Below, in pieces: positions 952-10,781 of a stretch of 22,657 bases of DNA. The DNA comes from a virus. The number at the start of each line of letters is the position of its first letter. Position 1 is the stretch's first letter. Position numbers and translations under genes: made by a program. The notes under the pieces were generated by a model. The model saw only the letters and a program-made list of their open reading frames with translations, had not been told where the DNA came from and made no database searches. Location of the stretch: IMG/VR virus record IMGVR_UViG_3300024256_000983; one strand, written 5' to 3'.

Positions 952-2712
952 ATTTACCAAAATATATTCGTAGAACCATTCAAGGGAAAGGTCCACATTT
1001 GGGACGACAAAGCCGGATATGTTTCAACACAATACAAAAAGTATGCTTATGTTAGAGACAACTATGGAACTTTTGCATCCTTATACGGTGATAAATTAAA
1101 GAAGATATACAGATGGGATAAGACTGCAGAAGGATTATTTGAAAGTGATGTAAATCCTGAAATGCGGACATTAATAGATATGTACGGTCAAAGTGAAGAA
1201 CCATCTACTGGACATAAAATATTCATATTTGACATTGAGTGTGAAGTAACAGAGGGCTTTCCAGACCCAATGATTGGTCCAAATAAAATCACATCTATTG
1301 CAATGTGGGATAACATCAGTAATGTTTATACGTGCTTAGCATTAGACGAACATAAGACACTAGACACAACAGGATTTGGAAAGAATGTCGTAGTTGAGAG
1401 TCACCAAACAGAGTATGAATTATTACAAAGATTTTACCAAAAGTATTTAGAGCTACGACCAACTATTATTACAGGTTGGAACGTAGATGGGTTTGATATT
1501 CCATATTTATACAACAGAACAATTAAAGTTCTCGGTCAAAGTGTTGCTGACAATCTATCACCAATATCAAAGGTGATGTATAGTAAATACACGAAACGAT
1601 ATAAAATAGCAGGTGTAAGTGTATTAGATTACTTACTACTCTATAAGGATTTTACATTTGGGTCAAGACCATCATATAGATTAGATGCCATTGGTCAATT
1701 TGAAGTTGGATCACCAAAAATAAGTTACGATGGAACACTAAACGATTTATTTGAAAACGACTTGAGAAAGTTTGTGGAATATAACATTCATGATGTTAGA
1801 ATAGTAAAACAGTTGGATGATAAATTAGATTTCATTGATATTGCCCGTGGTATTTGTCATATCGGTCATGTTCCATATGAGGACATATATTTCAGTAGTA
1901 GATATTTAGAAGGGGCAATCCTCACTCATTTGAAAAAATTAAACATCGTAGCACCAAACAAACCAGAAAAGGGTGAATATACAGATAATAAGTTCGTAGG
2001 AGCATACGTAAAAAGTCCACAACGTGGTAAACATGACTGGGTTATAGATTTGGATCTGACAAGTATGTACCCAAATTTAATAATGAGTTTGAATATCAGC
2101 CCAGAAACTAAGTTTGGAAGGGTAGTTGGTTGGAATGCTAAAGAATTTATATCAAAGAAAAAAAAGACACATTCTATCATATTAAATGGAAAGAAGAAGG
2201 GCCAACTAACAAATACAGAATTAGAGGACTTTTTTAATGATAATCAAATATCTATTTCAAGTGCTGGTATATTATATAAAACAGACAAAGCAGGTTTAAT
2301 ACCAACTATTTTATCCAAGTGGTTTGATACAAGATCAGAGTTTAGGAAATTAGCTAAGAAATTTGCAGACGACGGAAATGACGAAAAATATGAATACTTT
2401 AACAGACGACAATATATTCAGAAAATTTTACTTAATAGTATGTACGGTGTTCTTGGACTTCAGGGTTGGAGATTTTACGATTTAGAAAATGCAACCTCAG
2501 TTACAACGGCAGGGCAAGAATTAATTAAGTTTACTGCAAAAATAACAAATCATTTTTATAATAGTGAGATTGGTACTCCAGTTGAAGTTGAATTAGAAAA
2601 CGGTGAAGTTAGAAAGTTATATGAAAACAATAGAGTTGATGTAATACGAAATGGTAAAAAAATGGAAATAAAAGTAAAAGATTTACTGGAAACCGATGAT
2701 TTTTTGAGTTAG
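952..2712 (+). CDS. polB: Family B DNA polymerase, N-terminal fragment (3'-5' exonuclease, motifs A and B), probably starting at ATT 952 and ending in a 44-aa intein-like tail
   Basis: ExoI FDIECE, ExoII GWNVDGFDIPY, ExoIII YNIHDV, motif A DLDLTSMYPN, motif B KILLNSMYG. Frame is open 70 codons upstream of ATG 1162 (IYQNIF...HIWDD), with GAGG at 941-944 seven nt before ATT 952. Confidence 0.93.
   Translation: MYQNIFVEPFKGKVHIWDDKAGYVSTQYKKYAYVRDNYGTFASLYGDKLKKIYRWDKTAEGLFESDVNPEMRTLIDMYGQSEEPSTGHKIFIFDIECEVTEGFPDPMIGPNKITSIAMWDNISNVYTCLALDEHKTLDTTGFGKNVVVESHQTEYELLQRFYQKYLELRPTIITGWNVDGFDIPYLYNRTIKVLGQSVADNLSPISKVMYSKYTKRYKIAGVSVLDYLLLYKDFTFGSRPSYRLDAIGQFEVGSPKISYDGTLNDLFENDLRKFVEYNIHDVRIVKQLDDKLDFIDIARGICHIGHVPYEDIYFSSRYLEGAILTHLKKLNIVAPNKPEKGEYTDNKFVGAYVKSPQRGKHDWVIDLDLTSMYPNLIMSLNISPETKFGRVVGWNAKEFISKKKKTHSIILNGKKKGQLTNTELEDFFNDNQISISSAGILYKTDKAGLIPTILSKWFDTRSEFRKLAKKFADDGNDEKYEYFNRRQYIQKILLNSMYGVLGLQGWRFYDLENATSVTTAGQELIKFTAKITNHFYNSEIGTPVEVELENGEVRKLYENNRVDVIRNGKKMEIKVKDLLETDDFLS
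2578..2709 (+). other. Vestigial intein-N-like segment at the end of the PolB N-fragment
   Basis: PVEVELENGEVRKLYENNRVDVIRNGKKMEIKVKDLLETDDFLS* aligns by eye with the end of the RFC IntN in this window (EIELENGEVVVCTEDH...VKTNQL...ILSP*). It lacks Cys1/block A and the TxxH motif. Confidence 0.65.
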
Positions 2713-3173
2713 ATTATACAGATGATAATAGAAGAAAAATTTGGAATTTACTTTATAATACAACTAAAATTGAGTATTGGTTACATAATGGATATACAGA
2801 AATAGAGGCTGAAAGTAAACGTGTTAAATTTAATTCAAAATCAAAATTATCTATTTCTGTAATGAAGGAAATAGAACGTGAACTTAATATTGAGATCCAA
2901 CCAGAAGTTCGAATTGGGTGTTATGTGGCAGATGGTAAATATGAAAATTATATTATAGAATTTTTTGGTGATTATTGGCACATGAATCCGCAGTTATATA
3001 ATGAGACTCATACTATTAGAGGGGGTAAAGTTGCCAATGAAATTTGGGAGTATGATGAAATTAAAATAAATTTTTATGAAGATAATGGATATATCCCAAT
3101 AATAATTTGGGAAAATGATTGGAATTTGAGTAAAGAAACCGTTTTAGAACATATAAGGAAAATTATAATATGA
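2700..3173 (+). CDS. Free-standing putative homing endonuclease (Vsr/DUF559-like PD-(D/E)xK) inside polB; start codon uncertain
   Basis: YVADG...IIEFFGDYWH...IWENDW nuclease motifs. Frame is open from 2700, with YWLHNGYTEIEAE upstream of the tracked ATG 2862. Lies between the polB fragments. Confidence 0.75.
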   Translation, partial: FFELDYTDDNRRKIWNLLYNTTKIEYWLHNGYTEIEAESKRVKFNSKSKLSISVMKEIERELNIEIQPEVRIGCYVADGKYENYIIEFFGDYWHMNPQLYNETHTIRGGKVANEIWEYDEIKINFYEDNGYIPIIIWENDWNLSKETVLEHIRKIII

Positions 3174-3238
3174 AAATAAAACAAATAAGGAGGCAGCCAG
3201 ATCTCGATGTTGATAGAATTATCTACGTCGACACTTGA
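3170..3238 (+). CDS. polB: PolB middle mini-fragment (22 aa, MKIKQIRRQPDLDVDRIIYVDT*): IntC-like start plus first half of motif C
   Basis: ATGA overlap with the endonuclease stop. IIYVDT is the first half of YxDTDS; the rest (TDSIF) continues in another frame from 3235. Confidence 0.7.
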   Translation: MKIKQIRRQPDLDVDRIIYVDT

Positions 3239-4086
3239 CTGATTCTATATTTTTATCAGTTGTAGACCTCATTAACCACCGTTTCAAAGGTCAAAGCCTG
3301 AGTGATGTAATGATGACTCAACGAATAAATGAAATTGCAACTGAAGTTCAAGAATACTTAAATGGTTCATACGACTATTTCGCTAAGAAATTCTGTAACT
3401 TAGACACACACCGATTTGAAATCAAACAGGAAATTATAGCAAAGTCTGGTTTATTCATTACAAAGAAACGATATGGTATGAAACTCATTAGTGATAATGG
3501 AGTTCAAGTAAATAAGACAATGGTAAAGGGATTAGATACTGTACGTAGTAATTTCGCACCGGCATTTAGAAAACTATTAAACGATGTATTAGAGGACATT
3601 TTAGCAAGTGTTCCACGGGATAAGATAGACCATAGAATAACCAGATTTAAGAAGAACATGAGATTAAAAGATTTAGATGATATTTCTTCTCCAACCGGTG
3701 TAAAGGGAATTAAGAAATATATTAAAAAGGACAAAGAAAATACTTCAGTATTTACAGTATTGAAGAACGGTATTCCAGTCCATGTAAGGGCAGCAGTAAG
3801 TTATAATGATTTATTGCGATATTACAAACGAGATAAAAAATATGGATTTATAAGTAATGGGGATAAAATCCGGTGGGTATATTTAAAGAATAACTCATTA
3901 GGATTATCAGTAGTAGCATATAAAGGTTATGAAGATCCACCCGAGATTATGAAATTCATAGAAGATAATATGGATTATGATAAAATCTATGATAGAGCAC
4001 TCACTAAAAAACTCAATCTATTTTATGAATGTTTAGATTGGGGTAAACCAGTAGATGAAGCACAAAGTATAGAAAGATTTTTTTAA
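3235..4086 (+). CDS. polB: Family B DNA polymerase, C-terminal fragment (second half of motif C, palm and thumb)
   Basis: TDSIF, KQEIIAKSGLFITKKRY, KGLDTVRS, PVHVRAA and YWV-type GDKIRWVYLK motifs; ends QSIERFF. TTG 3235 overlaps TGA 3236-3238. Confidence 0.92.
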   Translation: MTDSIFLSVVDLINHRFKGQSLSDVMMTQRINEIATEVQEYLNGSYDYFAKKFCNLDTHRFEIKQEIIAKSGLFITKKRYGMKLISDNGVQVNKTMVKGLDTVRSNFAPAFRKLLNDVLEDILASVPRDKIDHRITRFKKNMRLKDLDDISSPTGVKGIKKYIKKDKENTSVFTVLKNGIPVHVRAAVSYNDLLRYYKRDKKYGFISNGDKIRWVYLKNNSLGLSVVAYKGYEDPPEIMKFIEDNMDYDKIYDRALTKKLNLFYECLDWGKPVDEAQSIERFF

Positions 4087-4928: not shown

Positions 4929-5084
4929 ATGGGAAGAAAGAAATTAAATAGAACGCCCGATGAAATACGAGAACAAAATCGTATTCGTCAAAGGCGTTAC
5001 TATGCTAAACATCGTGAAGAAATAATATCCAAGAAGATGGAGAAATATTATGAAGGTAAAAAAGACACTACAACGAGGGCTTAA
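4929..5084 (+). CDS. Small basic helical protein (51 aa) overlapping the HNH gene; not in the ORF track
   Basis: MGRKKLNRTPDEIREQNRIRQRRYYAKHREEIISKKMEKYYEGKKDTTTRA*, directly after TATTTATA. Confidence 0.65.
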   Translation: MGRKKLNRTPDEIREQNRIRQRRYYAKHREEIISKKMEKYYEGKKDTTTRA

Positions 5085-5670
5085 TCATAGTAGGAGAAAT
5101 GAAAAACCAATTTGGGAACATATTCCGTTAGATGGTTTAGATCCAAGAACCAAAGACTTTACAGGTAAAAGAATTCACCATCTTAAAGTTTTATATTCTA
5201 CGAGAGTAGAAAAATCTCAACGATGGTGGTGGGTTTGTAAATGTGATTGTGGTATGTATGCCTTGAGGCCTAACTGGCAATTAATTGGTAAATATCAATC
5301 TAAAAGTTGTGGCTGTCTAATGGGAAAGTCAATCCCTGAAACAGCTGGAACTGAAAATCATCCACTTTTTGGTGGTCATAGAACTTACACAAGAGAAGGA
5401 TATGTTTTGAAATTTGCACCTGACCATCCTAAATCAAAAGATAGACGAGTCTTGGAGCATCGTTTGGTTATGGAAGCACATATTGGTAGGACTCTCACAT
5501 CCAAGGAAACAGTTCATCATAAAAACGGAATACGAGATGATAATAGAATTGAGAACTTGGAACTTTGGACTGGTTCTCATCCCCACGGCGTAAGAAAAAA
5601 TGACCTAACAGATTGGGCAATAAGTTATTTACAAAAAGAAGGTTACAGGGTGATGAATGATAGACTTTGA
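5050..5670 (+). CDS. HNH homing endonuclease (HNH_3 type) with N-terminal Cys-rich DNA-binding region
   Basis: EHRLVME...VHHKNGIRDDNRIENLELW; N-terminal WVCKCDCG...SCGC. Confidence 0.9.
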   Translation: MKVKKTLQRGLNHSRRNEKPIWEHIPLDGLDPRTKDFTGKRIHHLKVLYSTRVEKSQRWWWVCKCDCGMYALRPNWQLIGKYQSKSCGCLMGKSIPETAGTENHPLFGGHRTYTREGYVLKFAPDHPKSKDRRVLEHRLVMEAHIGRTLTSKETVHHKNGIRDDNRIENLELWTGSHPHGVRKNDLTDWAISYLQKEGYRVMNDRL

Positions 5671-8481: not shown

Positions 8482-9114
8482 ATGTTACAAAACAAACAAA
8501 ATTCTGAACATACTCTTTTTGTTGAGAAATACAGGCCAATATCATTAGACACTTACATAGGAAACGACCACCTAAAGGAAAAGGTAAGGGTTTATTTGGA
8601 AAGTGGAGACATCCCACACTTACTATTATTTGGTCCAGCTGGAACCGGTAAGACAACTCTCGCAAAAATACTCTCAAATAGTATTGAATGTGACTATATT
8701 TACATAAATGCGAGTGATGAAAATAGTGTAGATTCTGTTAGAAATAAAATAAAAGGATTCGTATCAACTATTGGATTTAAAGATTTAAAGGTGGTCGTAC
8801 TTGATGAGTGTTTGGATGAAAATACATTAGTTACTGTATTATCGAATGGGGAACAGATTCAAGTTCCGATAAAAGATGTTGATGAAAACAATGATTTAGT
8901 TAAATCTTGGAATGTTGAAAAAGAAGAATGGCAGTGGAGACCATTCCACTTGTGGGATAAGGGTGAACAAGAGGTGTATGAGATTGAACTTGAAAATGGT
9001 GAAGTAGTTGTTTGCACTGAAGATCATAAATGGTACGTCGAAGATAAAAATGGTAATCCAATTGTAGTTAAAACAAATCAGTTGGATAACTATAATCATA
9101 TTTTATCACCATAG
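8482..9114 (+). CDS. rfcS: Clamp loader (RFC small subunit/gp44-like) N-fragment fused to split intein N-part
   Basis: FVEKYRP, Walker A GPAGTGKT, INASDE, Walker B VVVLDE followed directly by intein block A CLDENT. Confidence 0.93.
   Translation: MLQNKQNSEHTLFVEKYRPISLDTYIGNDHLKEKVRVYLESGDIPHLLLFGPAGTGKTTLAKILSNSIECDYIYINASDENSVDSVRNKIKGFVSTIGFKDLKVVVLDECLDENTLVTVLSNGEQIQVPIKDVDENNDLVKSWNVEKEEWQWRPFHLWDKGEQEVYEIELENGEVVVCTEDHKWYVEDKNGNPIVVKTNQLDNYNHILSP
8809..9111 (+). mobile_element. Split intein N-part (101 aa)
   Basis: Cys1 CLDENTLV at TGT 8809; block B ELENGEVVVCTEDHKW; stop follows. Confidence 0.92.
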
Positions 9115-9149
9115 TTAGATTTTTTTACTCGAAAAACACAAGTTGGTTA

Positions 9150-9157
9150 TATTTATA
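9150..9157 (+). promoter_or_regulatory. TATTTATA motif upstream of the endonuclease inside the fractured clamp loader gene
   Basis: TATATTTATATAT at 9148-9160, then SD GGAG and ATG 9179. Confidence 0.45.
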
Positions 9158-9178
9158 TATGAACAATGGAGATGTTAA

Positions 9179-10072
9179 ATGAGTATAAAAAAATCTACAA
9201 GGCAAAAGTTAAGAGATGCCGCAAATAGAAATGGCCTTGGTGGAGTTCATTATTATGATAAGATTTGTGACAGTTGTGGTAAAGATTATGTAGCTAAAGC
9301 GTCGAATCAATTGTTATGTTATGAATGTAAAAAAATAGGTAGGTTGAAAGAATGTGAACATTGTGATTCTAGATTTCATACAAAAAATAATGGAAAATAT
9401 TGTAATCAGTGTGTCGGTAATAGAGTATGGATGCGAAAACGAGATAATATAAAAATTGCTAAAAAGATACAACATACAAAGAAAAAATGGTTACAATCGG
9501 ATGAAGCTAAACAATTTTATACACAACTTGGAAAACACAATTCTAAAAAGATGAAAGAGTTTAACCAGACTGAAAAGGGTAAGGCTAATATAAAAAGAAA
9601 TGCAAAATTAAACTCAAAGTTGATGAGAGAAAAGATTTCCAATGGTGAATTTACACCACCAATAACAAATACATTTACACATTGGGATGCTATAATAGAA
9701 GTTAATGGTAAAGTTAAAAAGTTTAGGAGTTCGTGGGAAGCTTGTTTTTGGTATAGTAATCAACATTTAGAATATGAAAGTAAGGAATGTAGAACTAAAA
9801 AAACGGATAATGGTAGAGTTTATATGGGTGATTTTTACGATAAAGATACAAAGATATTGTATGAAATAAAACCAAGAAGTTTTTTCTTAAAACAAACAAA
9901 AAAAATAGACAGCTTAATAAAACATTGTGATGTGAGTGGATATAAATTCAAGTGGATAAATGAAAATAATATTATGGATTATATAAATTCAGAAATATTT
10001 ATTGATAATAACAAAATACAATTAAATAAAATGTATGTGGGAATAGGTTATAGTGAACAAGATAAAGATTAA
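9179..10072 (+). CDS. Free-standing putative homing endonuclease: N-terminal zinc fingers plus TnsA/gp4-like PD-(D/E)xK nuclease domain
   Basis: CDSC...CYEC and CEHC...CNQC; FRSSWE...LEYE...YMGDFY...YEIKP. Sits between IntN and IntC. Confidence 0.75.
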   Translation: MSIKKSTRQKLRDAANRNGLGGVHYYDKICDSCGKDYVAKASNQLLCYECKKIGRLKECEHCDSRFHTKNNGKYCNQCVGNRVWMRKRDNIKIAKKIQHTKKKWLQSDEAKQFYTQLGKHNSKKMKEFNQTEKGKANIKRNAKLNSKLMREKISNGEFTPPITNTFTHWDAIIEVNGKVKKFRSSWEACFWYSNQHLEYESKECRTKKTDNGRVYMGDFYDKDTKILYEIKPRSFFLKQTKKIDSLIKHCDVSGYKFKWINENNIMDYINSEIFIDNNKIQLNKMYVGIGYSEQDKD

Positions 10073-10172
10073 ATCTATAAAAAAATTAAAAGACACCCAG
10101 CACGTGTATGACTTGTCAGTTGATGGTAATCATAATTTCGTAATAGGTAAAACAGAAACACTTACACATAAT
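10053..10172 (+). mobile_element. Split intein C-part (40 aa)
   Basis: MNKIKIKSIKK...VYDLSVDGNHNF (block F)...LTHN|C (block G, Cys+1 at 10173). Confidence 0.92.
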
Positions 10173-10781
10173 TGTGATTTCGTCACCCCACAAGGTCAAG
10201 CAGCACTACGAAATCTAATGGAAACGTTCAGTAAACATTCTCGGTTTATTCTAACCTGTAATTATGTAGAACGAATAATTGATCCAATCCAAAGTAGATG
10301 TCAAACATTTCAGATAATTCCACCATCCAAAAAAGAAATTGCAGTACATATAAAGGGTATATTGGATAAGGAAGAAATAGAATACAACGTAGAGGACATA
10401 GTATTGAACGTTAATAGTGGGTATCCAGACATTAGACGAATAATCAATTCAGTCCAACAGCAATCTATAAATGGTAAATTGACTGTTGATAAACGTAGTA
10501 TGGTTGAAAATGATTACAAATTAAAATTATTAGAAATACTAAAGTCACAAGATAAGAAGAGTGCATTTAAGAATATACGACAATTATTAGCAGACACCCA
10601 AGTTACAGAATTTGCTGATATGTTCAGATTACTATTTGATGAACTGGATTCATGGGCGAGTGGTCATGTCGCGGAATGTATATTAGAACTGGCTGAAGGT
10701 CAGTTTAGAGAAAAAAACATCGTGGATAGAGAAATAAATTTTATGGCAACAATGATTAATATATTAAATATAATAAAATAA
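10053..10781 (+). CDS. rfcS: Split intein C-part fused to clamp loader C-fragment (GTG start)
   Basis: 40-aa IntC, then CDFVTPQGQAALRNLMETFS, FILTCNY and the SRC arginine finger. The spliced product would be 311 aa with Walker B restored as DECD. Confidence 0.93.
   Translation: MNKIKIKSIKKLKDTQHVYDLSVDGNHNFVIGKTETLTHNCDFVTPQGQAALRNLMETFSKHSRFILTCNYVERIIDPIQSRCQTFQIIPPSKKEIAVHIKGILDKEEIEYNVEDIVLNVNSGYPDIRRIINSVQQQSINGKLTVDKRSMVENDYKLKLLEILKSQDKKSAFKNIRQLLADTQVTEFADMFRLLFDELDSWASGHVAECILELAEGQFREKNIVDREINFMATMINILNIIK

Follow-up and report, generated by a model that had tools for sequence, protein, structure and literature searches.

A T4-type phage DNA polymerase gene split at an endonuclease remnant, with intein-like termini and a proposed short ribosomal hop

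The Aeromonas phages 44RR and 25 are said by Petrov and Karam to make their T4-family DNA polymerase (gp43) from two cistrons, 43A and 43B; a free-standing endonuclease gene lies between them, 43B also carries a group I intron, and the two products reportedly form an active complex. To our knowledge, intein-like tails have not been reported for this split gp43.

In the class known as fractured genes, split inteins flank a free-standing homing endonuclease (Dassa et al. 2009, PMC2677866), as in gp41-1, NrdJ-1 and IMPDH-1. Association of the intein halves is held to be driven by opposite charges on two long strands, and the same paper describes a Vsr-like homing endonuclease family (PMC2677866). 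Split inteins of the Ser1/Ser+1 kind are also known from family B polymerases (PolB) of the Aes123 PolB1 type (PMC11923092, PDB 9hth). In the arrangement nrdA-a / mobE / nrdA-b of Aeromonas phage Aeh1, the tails brought in by mobE are essential for the split NrdA (Crona et al. 2011, PMC3045599); they are dispensable for the heterodimer and needed only at a later assembly step, and the authors speculated that such tails may be degenerate intein remnants (PMC3045599). The T4 gene 39 / mobA / gene 60 locus contains a 50-nt translational bypass (10.1101/2022.08.31.505936; PMC5009743). Recoding reviews expect shorter stop-hop events as well, which are known only from synthetic constructs (PMC5009743).

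Here we describe a split PolB gene in a stretch of viral DNA of 22,657 nucleotides (IMG/VR record IMGVR_UViG_3300024256_000983), the whole of which is referred to as the window. All features of the locus given below lie on the plus strand.

Anatomy and distribution of the split polymerase gene

The gene encodes a family B DNA polymerase of the T4 gp43 type, whose exonuclease domain precedes motifs A, B and C in that order, motif C being complete only across a 5-nt break. The N-fragment ORF (1162..2712; 516 aa, stop TAG 2710-2712) consists of a core (1162..2577) with the exonuclease domain, palm motif A and fingers motif B, followed by an acidic tail of 44 aa (2578..2709; residues 474-516 and the preceding Pro). 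Homology to intact PolB stops at residue 473 (..NSEIGT; phrog_262, protein 3-473), and residues 2-472 aligned by tblastn with the intact PolB of Microcystis phage Mel-JY01. A Shine-Dalgarno sequence, AAGGA (3155..3159), was read from the sequence 10 nt upstream of ATG 3170; the relative L004 has AAGGAA 5 nt upstream of the homologous ATG. The C-side polymerase ORF opens there with the basic head MKIKQIRRQ (9 aa; 3170..3196) and resumes PolB sequence with PDLDVDRIIYVDT (3197..3235), the strand leading into motif C, which aligns to ..DYCIYIDT of intact relatives. This head ORF is closed within YVDTDS by TGA 3236-3238, and the polymerase frame resumes 5 nt past its end. The five extra bases (3236..3240) are TG and the ACT codon at 3238-3240, with which the C-fragment (3238..4086; stop 4084-4086) begins; it holds the rest of motif C (TDS..), the palm and the thumb to ..ERFF. 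Pfam matched PF03104 and PF00136 in the N-fragment and PF00136 in the C-fragment, and the two fragments covered phrog_262 positions 101-569 and 579-850, respectively. The C-fragment is 40% identical to the Mel-JY01 PolB and 38% identical to LR756508. The region 2300-3500, searched for a group I intron with Rfam (E <= 10), gave only chance snoRNA/miRNA rows, and an intron was ruled out on these. A search of INPHARED phages for DNA similarity found none.

A sequence-only reading of this DNA had described a PolB fractured around an endonuclease with a second fragment beginning MKIKQIRR. What it described does lie at the coordinates that it gave, but the endonuclease proved to be a decayed remnant, and the ORF opened by MKIKQIRR has only 22 codons, with its TGA inside motif C. 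The remnant (2700..3173), between the N-fragment and the head ORF, stays open for 157 codons, read in frame -1 with respect to the PolB N-fragment, and has no ATG, GTG or TTG before 2862, its first start codon being ATG 2862. What survives is an N-terminal motif (about 2769-2825) together with the nuclease core, which is Vsr-like and reads EFxGDYWH (about 2952-3125); phrog_22677 and phrog_559 were matched in the C-terminal part only. BLASTP with the 337-aa endonuclease of L070 gave two separated matches (24-42 to 9-27 and 85-142 to 257-319), and about 180 central residues are gone relative to full-length relatives.

The contents of the gap differ between lineages. Its nuclease is of the HNH type in L066, GIY-YIG in L067 and Vsr-like in L069, L070 and the window remnant, and L004 and L075 carry another type. 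Tail and head persist without an endonuclease in L076, L081 and LR756508; the gap is empty in L076 and filled with unrelated genes in LR756508. The motif C break accompanies endonucleases of the ARTLQYW type (window, L004, L069, L070, L073 and L075) and is absent at HNH and GIY-YIG loci. This correlation suggests that the 5-nt insert may protect against the endonuclease of its own cassette.

Among 58 close relatives in IMG/VR, 55 have an uninterrupted polymerase without tail or head, and the intact ones (C-fragments 60-80% identical) read ..ELGT-xDDYCIYIDTDS... The split was shared only by L004, which is the same as L058 (90% identical, two samples). Mel-JY01 also lacks them. With 55 of 58 close relatives free of the pair, tail and head are not a normal PolB insertion, in agreement with the earlier reading. 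We searched 1.8 billion representatives by phmmer with N-fragment residues 401-516 and found that a homologous tail ends PolB N-fragments in at least 30 distant clusters. The protein ends directly after the tail in 32 of 33 tail-bearing clusters, and every sequenced partner of these N-fragments starts with MKIK. In one sequence, P0024, the PolB is contiguous (918 aa) and has a tail-like insertion, so a tail can exist without a split. The segment of P0024 past the tail resembles intein blocks F and G by eye; its match to the profile of intein C parts (IntC) was not significant (E 0.07). On the PolB tree, well-supported branches force at least 6 state changes, and the window and L004 are nested among intact genes. 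This scattered distribution and the different endonucleases in the gap make lateral movement of the module, with endonuclease cassettes, more likely than the decay of a split intein in place. The earlier proposal of a split intein reduced to a remnant stands as to intein homology and lost catalysis but is modified on this point.

Relationship of tail and head to split inteins

We compared a profile of 33 tails with a profile of 14 split-intein N parts (IntN) by hhalign and obtained Prob 95.8, an E-value of 7.3e-9 and a score of 43.0, with 100 column shuffles scoring 9.4±2.1 (maximum 16.6) and the reversed profile 16.1. Tail positions 2-43 aligned to positions 78-120 of 122 in IntN, its C-terminal end, so that the segment corresponds to the Hint block B hairpin through the last IntN strand. 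The match, far above the shuffles, bears out the proposed homology to the end of split-intein N parts in the proposed register. BLASTP of the tail against the IntN of the clamp-loader intein in the same window gave that register again (E 6e-5). The tail also aligned locally with the block A region of that intein (E 6e-6), as the internal symmetry of Hint leads one to expect; this shows that the register is not unique at the pairwise level. The 44-aa tail had no Intein, Hint or Hom_end_hint match in Pfam at E <= 1 and no sequence match in the PDB at E <= 10.

The clamp-loader gene (8482-10781) is also of the fractured kind; its split intein is complete (8482..9114 and 10053..10781) and matches PF14890 weakly. 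As had been claimed, the N part of this intein has ELENGEV close to the end, and the C part, of 40 residues ending THN/C, opens with KIKIKSIKK. Over ELENGEV the DNA of the PolB tail and of this intein is identical at 21 of 27 nt, the likeness being at the protein level only. Recent gene conversion between the two was rejected on this identity, with its synonymous differences.

The splicing residues were missing throughout, as the sequence-only reading had stated. The tail follows ..EIGT directly and begins with Pro, so neither Cys nor Ser opens it, and the position-1 nucleophile and block A region are absent. The TxxH position reads YENN in the window (Y..N at the aligned positions), and T..H was kept in 0 of 33 tails, in which one Asp is invariant. 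The head has only 9 residues, lacks the blocks F and G with their terminal His-Asn, and is followed by Pro (PDLD.. of PolB) instead of a +1 nucleophile. About 52 of about 140 Hint residues are retained (~43 + 9). Ligation of the halves is ruled out by the loss of all catalytic residues.

AlphaFold2 (AF2) predicted the tail as a beta meander of 4-5 strands (pLDDT 80-90), and the low-rmsd Foldseek matches to this model were inteins or Hedgehog (1.6-2.0 Å over 40-43 columns). The VIA match of the tail lay at about residues 66-120 in mini-inteins of 168-170 residues and at 45-95 in Npu DnaE, a segment just before the split or endonuclease-insertion site. We also modeled the L076 junction as one chain (tail, TAA read as Q, 6 codons and head) on a 16-row alignment. 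In this model (pTM 0.66) the head formed a 9-residue strand with a pLDDT of 91, the top 50 entries were all Hint domains, and the matched ranges spanned the split site (Npu DnaE 53-115, gp41-1 41-104), extending over the head into the position of the first C-part strand. The VIA Z values, 5.3 for the tail alone and up to 9.3 for the L076 tail with head, are middling by VIA's own calibration, and VIA lists re-examine Foldseek candidates; AF2 may favour a known fold in the junction model. The models agree with the earlier expectation of a Hint-like fold, of which the window element would have the central lobe only. A complex prediction for the unbroken L066 pair of tail (53 aa) and head (32 aa) gave an ipSAE of 0.30 against a mark of 0.32 and was counted neither for nor against binding. 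The models support the prediction that the tail adopts the matching part of the Hint fold, and profile and fold together support its descent from the end of a split-intein N part.

The head was MKIK at its start in 16 of 16 partner C-fragments examined, and a start of this type occurred in 2 of 411 other ORFs. Mean net charges were -4.3 for tails and +3.4 for heads, the same polarity as in the real split intein of the window (-5/+5). Comparison of the head profile with the IntC profile gave the expected register and a score of 11.9 against 8.0±2.1 for shuffles (maximum 15.4), which was not significant because the head is too short. The likeness of MKIKQIRR to the start of an intein C part, as first suggested, is seen in its first-strand position in the model; by sequence alone it was not significant. 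We infer an intein C part as the ancestor of the head. The opposite charges and the single-chain read-through model suggest that tail and head would bind each other, and this binding may matter for polymerase assembly.

The break in motif C

In the window the break has the geometry ACT-TG-ACT, with a putative take-off codon ACT at 3233-3235 and a putative landing codon ACT at 3238-3240. The same +5 geometry was found in eight lineages (window, L004, L069, L071, L075, L076, L078 and L081), with the pattern ACY/ACG-T(G/A)-ACT-GAY. A stop followed the take-off codon in all eight, and the landing codon was ACT in all eight while the third base of the take-off codon varied. The codon overlapping the stop is TTG in the window (3235-3237), and the series over the eight lineages is TTG, CTG, CTA, CTA, GTA, GTA, TTA and TTA, which leaves at most two of them with a usual start codon there. 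In L071 the break lies in an otherwise unsplit gene and leaves 40 residues, including the catalytic Asp, without a start codon. The gap length was 8 and 6 nt in two relatives. In L070 the stop TAA is followed directly by ATG (6 nt), which fits termination-reinitiation, and L073 has GTG ahead of the landing codon. A -1 or +2 frameshift was rejected since the Thr tRNA has no cognate codon at those offsets. From these patterns we propose that ribosomes hop from Thr to Thr over five bases, which would restore YVDTDS. If so, the linked interruption offers at least 10 natural variants of a short stop-hop.

Interpretation and comparison with known systems

We consider the following explanation, taken as a whole, to be moderately probable. 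A homing-endonuclease cassette would have inserted into a surface loop just before the motif C strand of a T4-like phage PolB. On the upstream fragment it would have left ~43 residues from the very end of a split-intein N part. The downstream fragment would have gained a ribosome-binding site and start codon, along with a short basic strand placed where an intein C part has its first strand. With no splicing residue in either piece, no peptide bond would be made. Instead, the acidic tail and basic head would re-form the central lobe of the Hint fold, the region whose electrostatic pairing first joins real split inteins, and thereby dock the C-fragment (motif C, palm, thumb) non-covalently on the N-fragment (exonuclease, palm, fingers). 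The C-fragment would be made only if ribosomes that start at ATG 3170 shift peptidyl-tRNA(Thr) from ACT 3233-3235 to ACT 3238-3240. A wider proposal, possible rather than probable in our judgement, is that tail, endonuclease, head and 5-nt insert form one mobile unit, a portable, non-catalytic half-Hint heterodimerisation module with an obligatory Thr-to-Thr stop-hop within the catalytic YxDTDS motif, whose insert would also destroy the target of the unit's own endonuclease.

The evidence for a clasp has to be set against the reading in which tail and head are passive passengers of the cassette that contribute nothing beyond a stop codon, a ribosome-binding site and a start codon, with the halves joined via their own palm and thumb surfaces, like those of other split PolBs, and conservation reflecting recent spread or a role of the DNA in homing or in expressing the endonuclease. 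The DNA of the window and L004 is only 9% diverged in the tail and 20% in the flanking polymerase, a difference that may stem from recent transfer or from a role of the DNA itself instead of from protein function; the module is also patchy and mobile, and the Aeh1 NrdA heterodimer forms without its tails (PMC3045599). We nevertheless regard passengers as unlikely. Tails sharing only 25-50% identity keep their length, strand pattern, invariant Asp and acidic charge across at least 30 clusters, heads remain MKIK and basic, both pieces outlast the endonuclease (L076, L081 and LR756508), and the head strand completes the Hint lobe in the model. Between the tails of the window and L004 (88% identical), synonymous codon changes (7) are more numerous than nonsynonymous ones (4). 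An ordinary accessory domain of PolB unrelated to inteins, beside which endonuclease genes happen to land, would account for the contiguous P0024 and for the lack of a Pfam intein match, and small beta meanders are common folds. Against this very improbable reading stand the hhalign match (E 7.3e-9, well over shuffles), structural matches that are only Hint domains at the right position, the 32 of 33 clusters that stop directly past the tail and the 55 of 58 relatives without one, together with the look of the P0024 post-tail segment as blocks F and G (by eye, not significant).

Two further readings concern the products of the locus. The enzyme could consist of three pieces, with a 22-residue peptide (head and first motif C strand) released at TGA as a loose staple from tail to palm and the C-fragment restarted at TTG 3235 by termination-reinitiation. 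The TTG of the window is usable and overlaps the stop in TTGA coupling geometry, and L070 and L073, with ATG and GTG respectively, have suitable codons too. But the overlapping codon is a non-start (CTA, GTA or TTA) in 6 of 8 lineages and CTG in L004, the landing ACT is invariant where the take-off codon varies, the unsplit L071 gene has no start codon for the 40 residues with the catalytic Asp, and a hop yields the exact universal motif in all cases, which makes three pieces distinctly unlikely. That tail and head are a working non-canonical splicing element, for which only their Hint ancestry speaks, is close to inconceivable for a pair without position-1 nucleophile, TxxH, block F/G, terminal Asn or +1 nucleophile and with so little of Hint left (about 52 of about 140 residues).

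If the half-intein clasp is real, it would show how a selfish endonuclease can cut an essential gene without killing its host: with the cassette comes a prefabricated clasp for the protein, the half of a split intein that does the capturing, free of its chemistry. In the wider proposal it is the dimerisation module of the mobile unit that renders the cutting harmless. The intein would here be reduced to a binding device, and T4 gene 60 bypassing would have a natural short-range counterpart in the hop. Tail and head could also serve as a compact, orthogonal, non-covalent tag pair for split-protein assembly. Such polymerases are now annotated as truncated or missing genes, and pipelines should join the pieces.

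The locus resembles the fractured genes of Dassa et al. in that an essential replication gene is read from a pair of ORFs on one strand, separated by an endonuclease gene; the first ORF ends as an N part ends and the second starts where a C part would. The facing strands are oppositely charged, and the break falls at the canonical endonuclease-insertion point of Hint. Unlike those genes, it has no splicing-competent halves, only ~43 + 9 Hint residues without a catalytic one. The insertion site, in the loop before the motif C strand, also differs from DTD/S of the real PolB split inteins found here and from the YxD/TDS intein of LR756508. With the split gp43 of 44RR and 25 it shares an endonuclease gene between the cistrons and a second interrupting element in the downstream cistron, but this element is a 5-nt insert here and a self-splicing intron there. 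As at T4 gene 39/mobA/gene 60, an endonuclease cassette splits a replication gene, and the insert is found in many phages, at times without the endonuclease (hit and run). The gap, however, is 5 nt and not 50, the codons are for Thr and not Gly, a stem-loop is neither apparent nor required, the insert interrupts a catalytic motif, and bypass is here a proposal.

A further parallel is the Aeh1 NrdA, where an endonuclease insertion likewise splits an essential gene with neither RNA nor protein splicing, and where the insertion brought C- and N-terminal tails of opposite charge that intact homologues lack. The polarity is reversed, the upstream tail being acidic and the downstream head basic in our case. 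Intein ancestry of the tail is here backed by profile and fold comparison, and the module occurs in many lineages with different endonucleases; its clasp function is a prediction. The sequence-only reading had not recognised such a clip as described, but the idea of a remnant had already been voiced as a speculation for Aeh1 NrdA (PMC3045599), where it is not known to have been demonstrated. The PolB family gives that suggestion a widespread, sequence-defined case in which to test it.

Broken PolB gene of the window and its relatives

The window carries the replication module of an AT-rich, T4-like phage, with genes for ribonucleotide reductase, PolB, the sliding clamp and the clamp loader. 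Its PolB N-fragment (1162..2712, 516 aa) matched the PolB profile up to residue 473 (..NSEIGT) and ended with 44 extra codons at 2578-2709, the acidic tail, before a TAG stop at 2710-2712. An endonuclease-remnant frame of 157 open codons followed (2700..3173), its first start codon being ATG 2862. The next ORF began at ATG 3170, preceded by AAGGA, with MKIKQIRRQ (the basic nine-residue head) and then PDLDVDRIIYVDT, and stopped at TGA 3236-3238; the PolB C-fragment resumed as TDSIF.. and ran from ACT 3238 to 4086. No intron was found in this region by Rfam. The mapped ORF anatomy (PolB profile matches and translated ORFs) and the Rfam result indicated that the sequence-only reading had described the locus correctly; the nuclease gene that it placed in the gap is only a remnant, and its next fragment, which does start MKIKQIRR, is broken again after 22 codons.

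The remnant at 2700-3173 is internally deleted relative to a ~335-aa endonuclease of related loci (L070 4697-5710 and L069 1386-2390) that combines an N-domain (ARTLQYW..GY..EEAE) with a Vsr-like nuclease (EFxGDYWH). The endonucleases of three other relatives, L004, L075 and L073, have the N-domain in common with it and a different C-terminal nuclease domain. At the tail end, T TTT TTG (2700-2706) forms a classic -1 slippery heptamer, which joins the PolB-N frame to that of the remnant, where a start codon is missing. The run encodes the conserved DDFL and may be there by chance; alternatively, it could be the scar of a pseudogene or serve to express a fusion. The clamp gene is separated from the operon that follows by a free-standing HNH endonuclease gene (5050-5670, PF13392), the third mobile nuclease within 10 kb. 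At 8482-10781, a complete split intein breaks the large subunit of the clamp loader at Walker B; its N part has 101 aa and its C part 40 aa, with the end THN|C, and a 297-aa endonuclease lies between the two. This site is intein-less in most relatives (..ILDECDYITP..) and holds a contiguous mini-intein in L067.

PolB was unbroken, with neither tail nor head, in 55 of 58 IMG/VR loci (C-fragments 60-90% identical) and likewise in Microcystis phage Mel-JY01. Among the 58, the window's arrangement was common only to L004 (= L058, assembled from two samples), whose gap holds an intact 277-aa endonuclease different from the window's; DNA homology between the two ends precisely at the tail end and restarts at the head ATG. 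When 1.8 billion representatives were searched by phmmer with residues 401-516 of the N-fragment, PolB N-fragments terminating in a homologous tail were found in at least 30 clusters. On the contigs fetched for several clusters, the order was tail, gap and a C-fragment beginning MKIK, a start that was rare elsewhere (2 of 411 other ORFs across all fetched loci), and the gap contained an HNH, GIY-YIG, Vsr-like or other nuclease gene, unrelated genes, or nothing. The exception was P0024 (L074 3609-3896), a contiguous PolB with a tail-like insertion, which may represent an intermediate stage or a gene that was re-fused. A stretch after its tail-like segment resembles intein blocks F and G by eye (..VFDV.., ..LHEN), a resemblance that was not significant by hhalign.

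Intein ancestry of the tail and proposed intein ancestry of the head

Pairwise, the tail matched the end of the N part of the window's own clamp-loader intein (E 6e-5) and also its block A region (E 6e-6), the latter being expected because the Hint (intein/Hedgehog) fold has internal symmetry. When the profile of 33 tails was compared with that of 14 N parts, the last 43 N-part residues paired with tail residues 2-43 (Prob 95.8, E 7.3e-9, score 43.0), while 100 column shuffles scored 9.4±2.1 (maximum 16.6) and the reversed profile 16.1, bearing out the claim that the tail matches the end of an intein N part. Tyr and Asn of the tail stand opposite the block B Thr and His, and no tail keeps both of these, in agreement with the reported absence of TxxH. 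AF2 modelled the tail alone as a beta meander (pLDDT 80-90). Foldseek gave no significant E-value with this very short query; its low-rmsd matches were to inteins and to Hedgehog (1.6-2.0 Å across 40-43 columns). VIA-align, at a middling Z of 5.3, always picked the segment directly preceding the point of the split or of endonuclease insertion. We read the tail as a fragment of an intein.

The head aligned best with C-part profiles in the expected register, yet inside the shuffle range, and it cannot be assigned to an intein C part by sequence alone. Its intein origin is indirectly supported by its position, which is constant across loci; by KIKSIKK, found unchanged both in the consensus of the heads and in the real C part of the window; by charge, heads being basic (+3.4) and tails acidic (-4.3) with the polarity of the window's real split intein; and by a fold model. 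The model was built for L076, a relative that has lost the endonuclease and has tail and head in one frame with TAA plus six codons between (10736-10759). With TAA read as Q, a purely in-silico linker, AF2 on this single chain with a shallow alignment gave a pTM of 0.66, the head forming a nine-residue strand (pLDDT 91) and the linker and the part before motif C being disordered. The top 50 VIA entries for this model were all Hint domains, with middling Z (up to 9.3), and the matched ranges spanned the split site (Npu DnaE 53-115, with IntN at 1-102 and then IntC; gp41-1 41-104).

Second interruption inside motif C

The head ORF halts at YVDT-TGA, and the frame picks up five bases on at ACT-GAT-TCT. 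A move of peptidyl-tRNA(Thr) from ACT 3233 to ACT 3238 would give back YVDTDS exactly. This break of motif C (YxDTDS) was seen in at least 10 lineages, the stop directly following one Thr codon and another Thr codon preceding GAY. It reads ACT tg ACT in the window (3233-3240), ACC tg ACT in L004, ACC ta ACT in L069 and L071, ACG ta ACT in L075 and L081, and ACT ta ACT in L076 and L078 (all +5), with ACC tagtg ACC in L073 (+8) and ACG taa ATG in L070 (+6).

The break in L070 and the TTG of the window would also fit a three-piece enzyme whose C-fragment is started separately, and we keep this explanation alive. However, the would-be start codon is CTA, GTA or TTA in 6 of the 8 +5 lineages, whose landing codon and stop never vary while synonymous positions do, and L071 carries the break alone, in a gene otherwise unsplit, with no endonuclease and no start codon downstream. 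A ribosomal stop-hop is the reading that these patterns favour. The break goes with one endonuclease lineage (ARTLQYW N-domain), HNH and GIY-YIG loci being without it; since it tracks this lineage, it would fit target-site immunity against the endonuclease, as proposed for mobA and gene 60 (10.1101/2022.08.31.505936). The proposed hop would be a short-range form of the bypass in T4 gene 60, and such short hops have so far been reported from synthetic constructs only (PMC5009743).

Split and hop geometry remain without an endonuclease in L076 and L081; tail and head of the latter lie 286 nt apart with no ORF between (1098-1384). In L070 (2118-6614), PolB is divided into no fewer than four translated parts: 384 aa, 220 aa with the tail at its end, a head peptide of 24 aa, and 280 aa. 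Two nuclease-like ORFs lie between these parts. In LR756508.1 (L001/L002), an uncultured phage of 484 kb, the N-fragment terminates in the same tail as the window's, the head is MKTKKIKNI, and the 3 kb between them hold four ORFs, none for a nuclease, which include two paralogues and one deaminase-like gene. Its PolB has full inteins at motif B (end ..GQ|S) and at YxD|TDS, where others have the 5-nt insert.

Proposed clasp, its origin and known systems

On the PolB tree, the tailed state changed at least 6 times on well-supported branches, and intact genes surround the window and L004. Tail and head flank unrelated endonuclease families, outlast the endonuclease and have a scattered distribution among the branches. 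Lateral spread, with the module travelling as the flanks of endonuclease cassettes, is therefore most likely; these flanks would also provide a viable split with its stop codon, its ribosome-binding site and its start codon. That a resident split intein decayed in place is less likely.

In split inteins, the beginning of the C part first meets the latter, disordered half of the N part, and opposite charges on the two long strands steer their association (PMC2677866). The segments surviving here are exactly those of this contact, with no catalytic residue left. The best-supported reading is a non-covalent clasp, in which we infer that tail and head would bind and dock the fragment with motif C, palm and thumb onto that with exonuclease, palm and fingers. 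Tails from endonuclease insertion can be essential in Aeh1 NrdA, their role not necessarily being simple heterodimerisation (PMC3045599).

We found no published account of a split polymerase bearing a natural half-intein that does not splice. Split inteins in fractured genes, assembly tails on genes split by an endonuclease, and split gp43 are already known, and a degenerate-intein idea for such tails was voiced earlier as speculation (PMC3045599). Real split inteins of the same PolB clade occupy the DTD|S site with Ser1 and Ser+1 (13 N parts and 19 C parts recovered). They form a large cysteine-less family (Ser1, T.DHS, ..VHN|S), with N parts P0041, P0048, P0054, P0061, P0072, P0096, P0100, P0111, P0116, P0130, P0132, P0135 and P0148 and C parts P0156 and P0170-P0188. 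These inteins resemble the characterised Aes123 PolB1 intein, and their basic N end and acidic C start are the reverse of the polarity of the tail and head.
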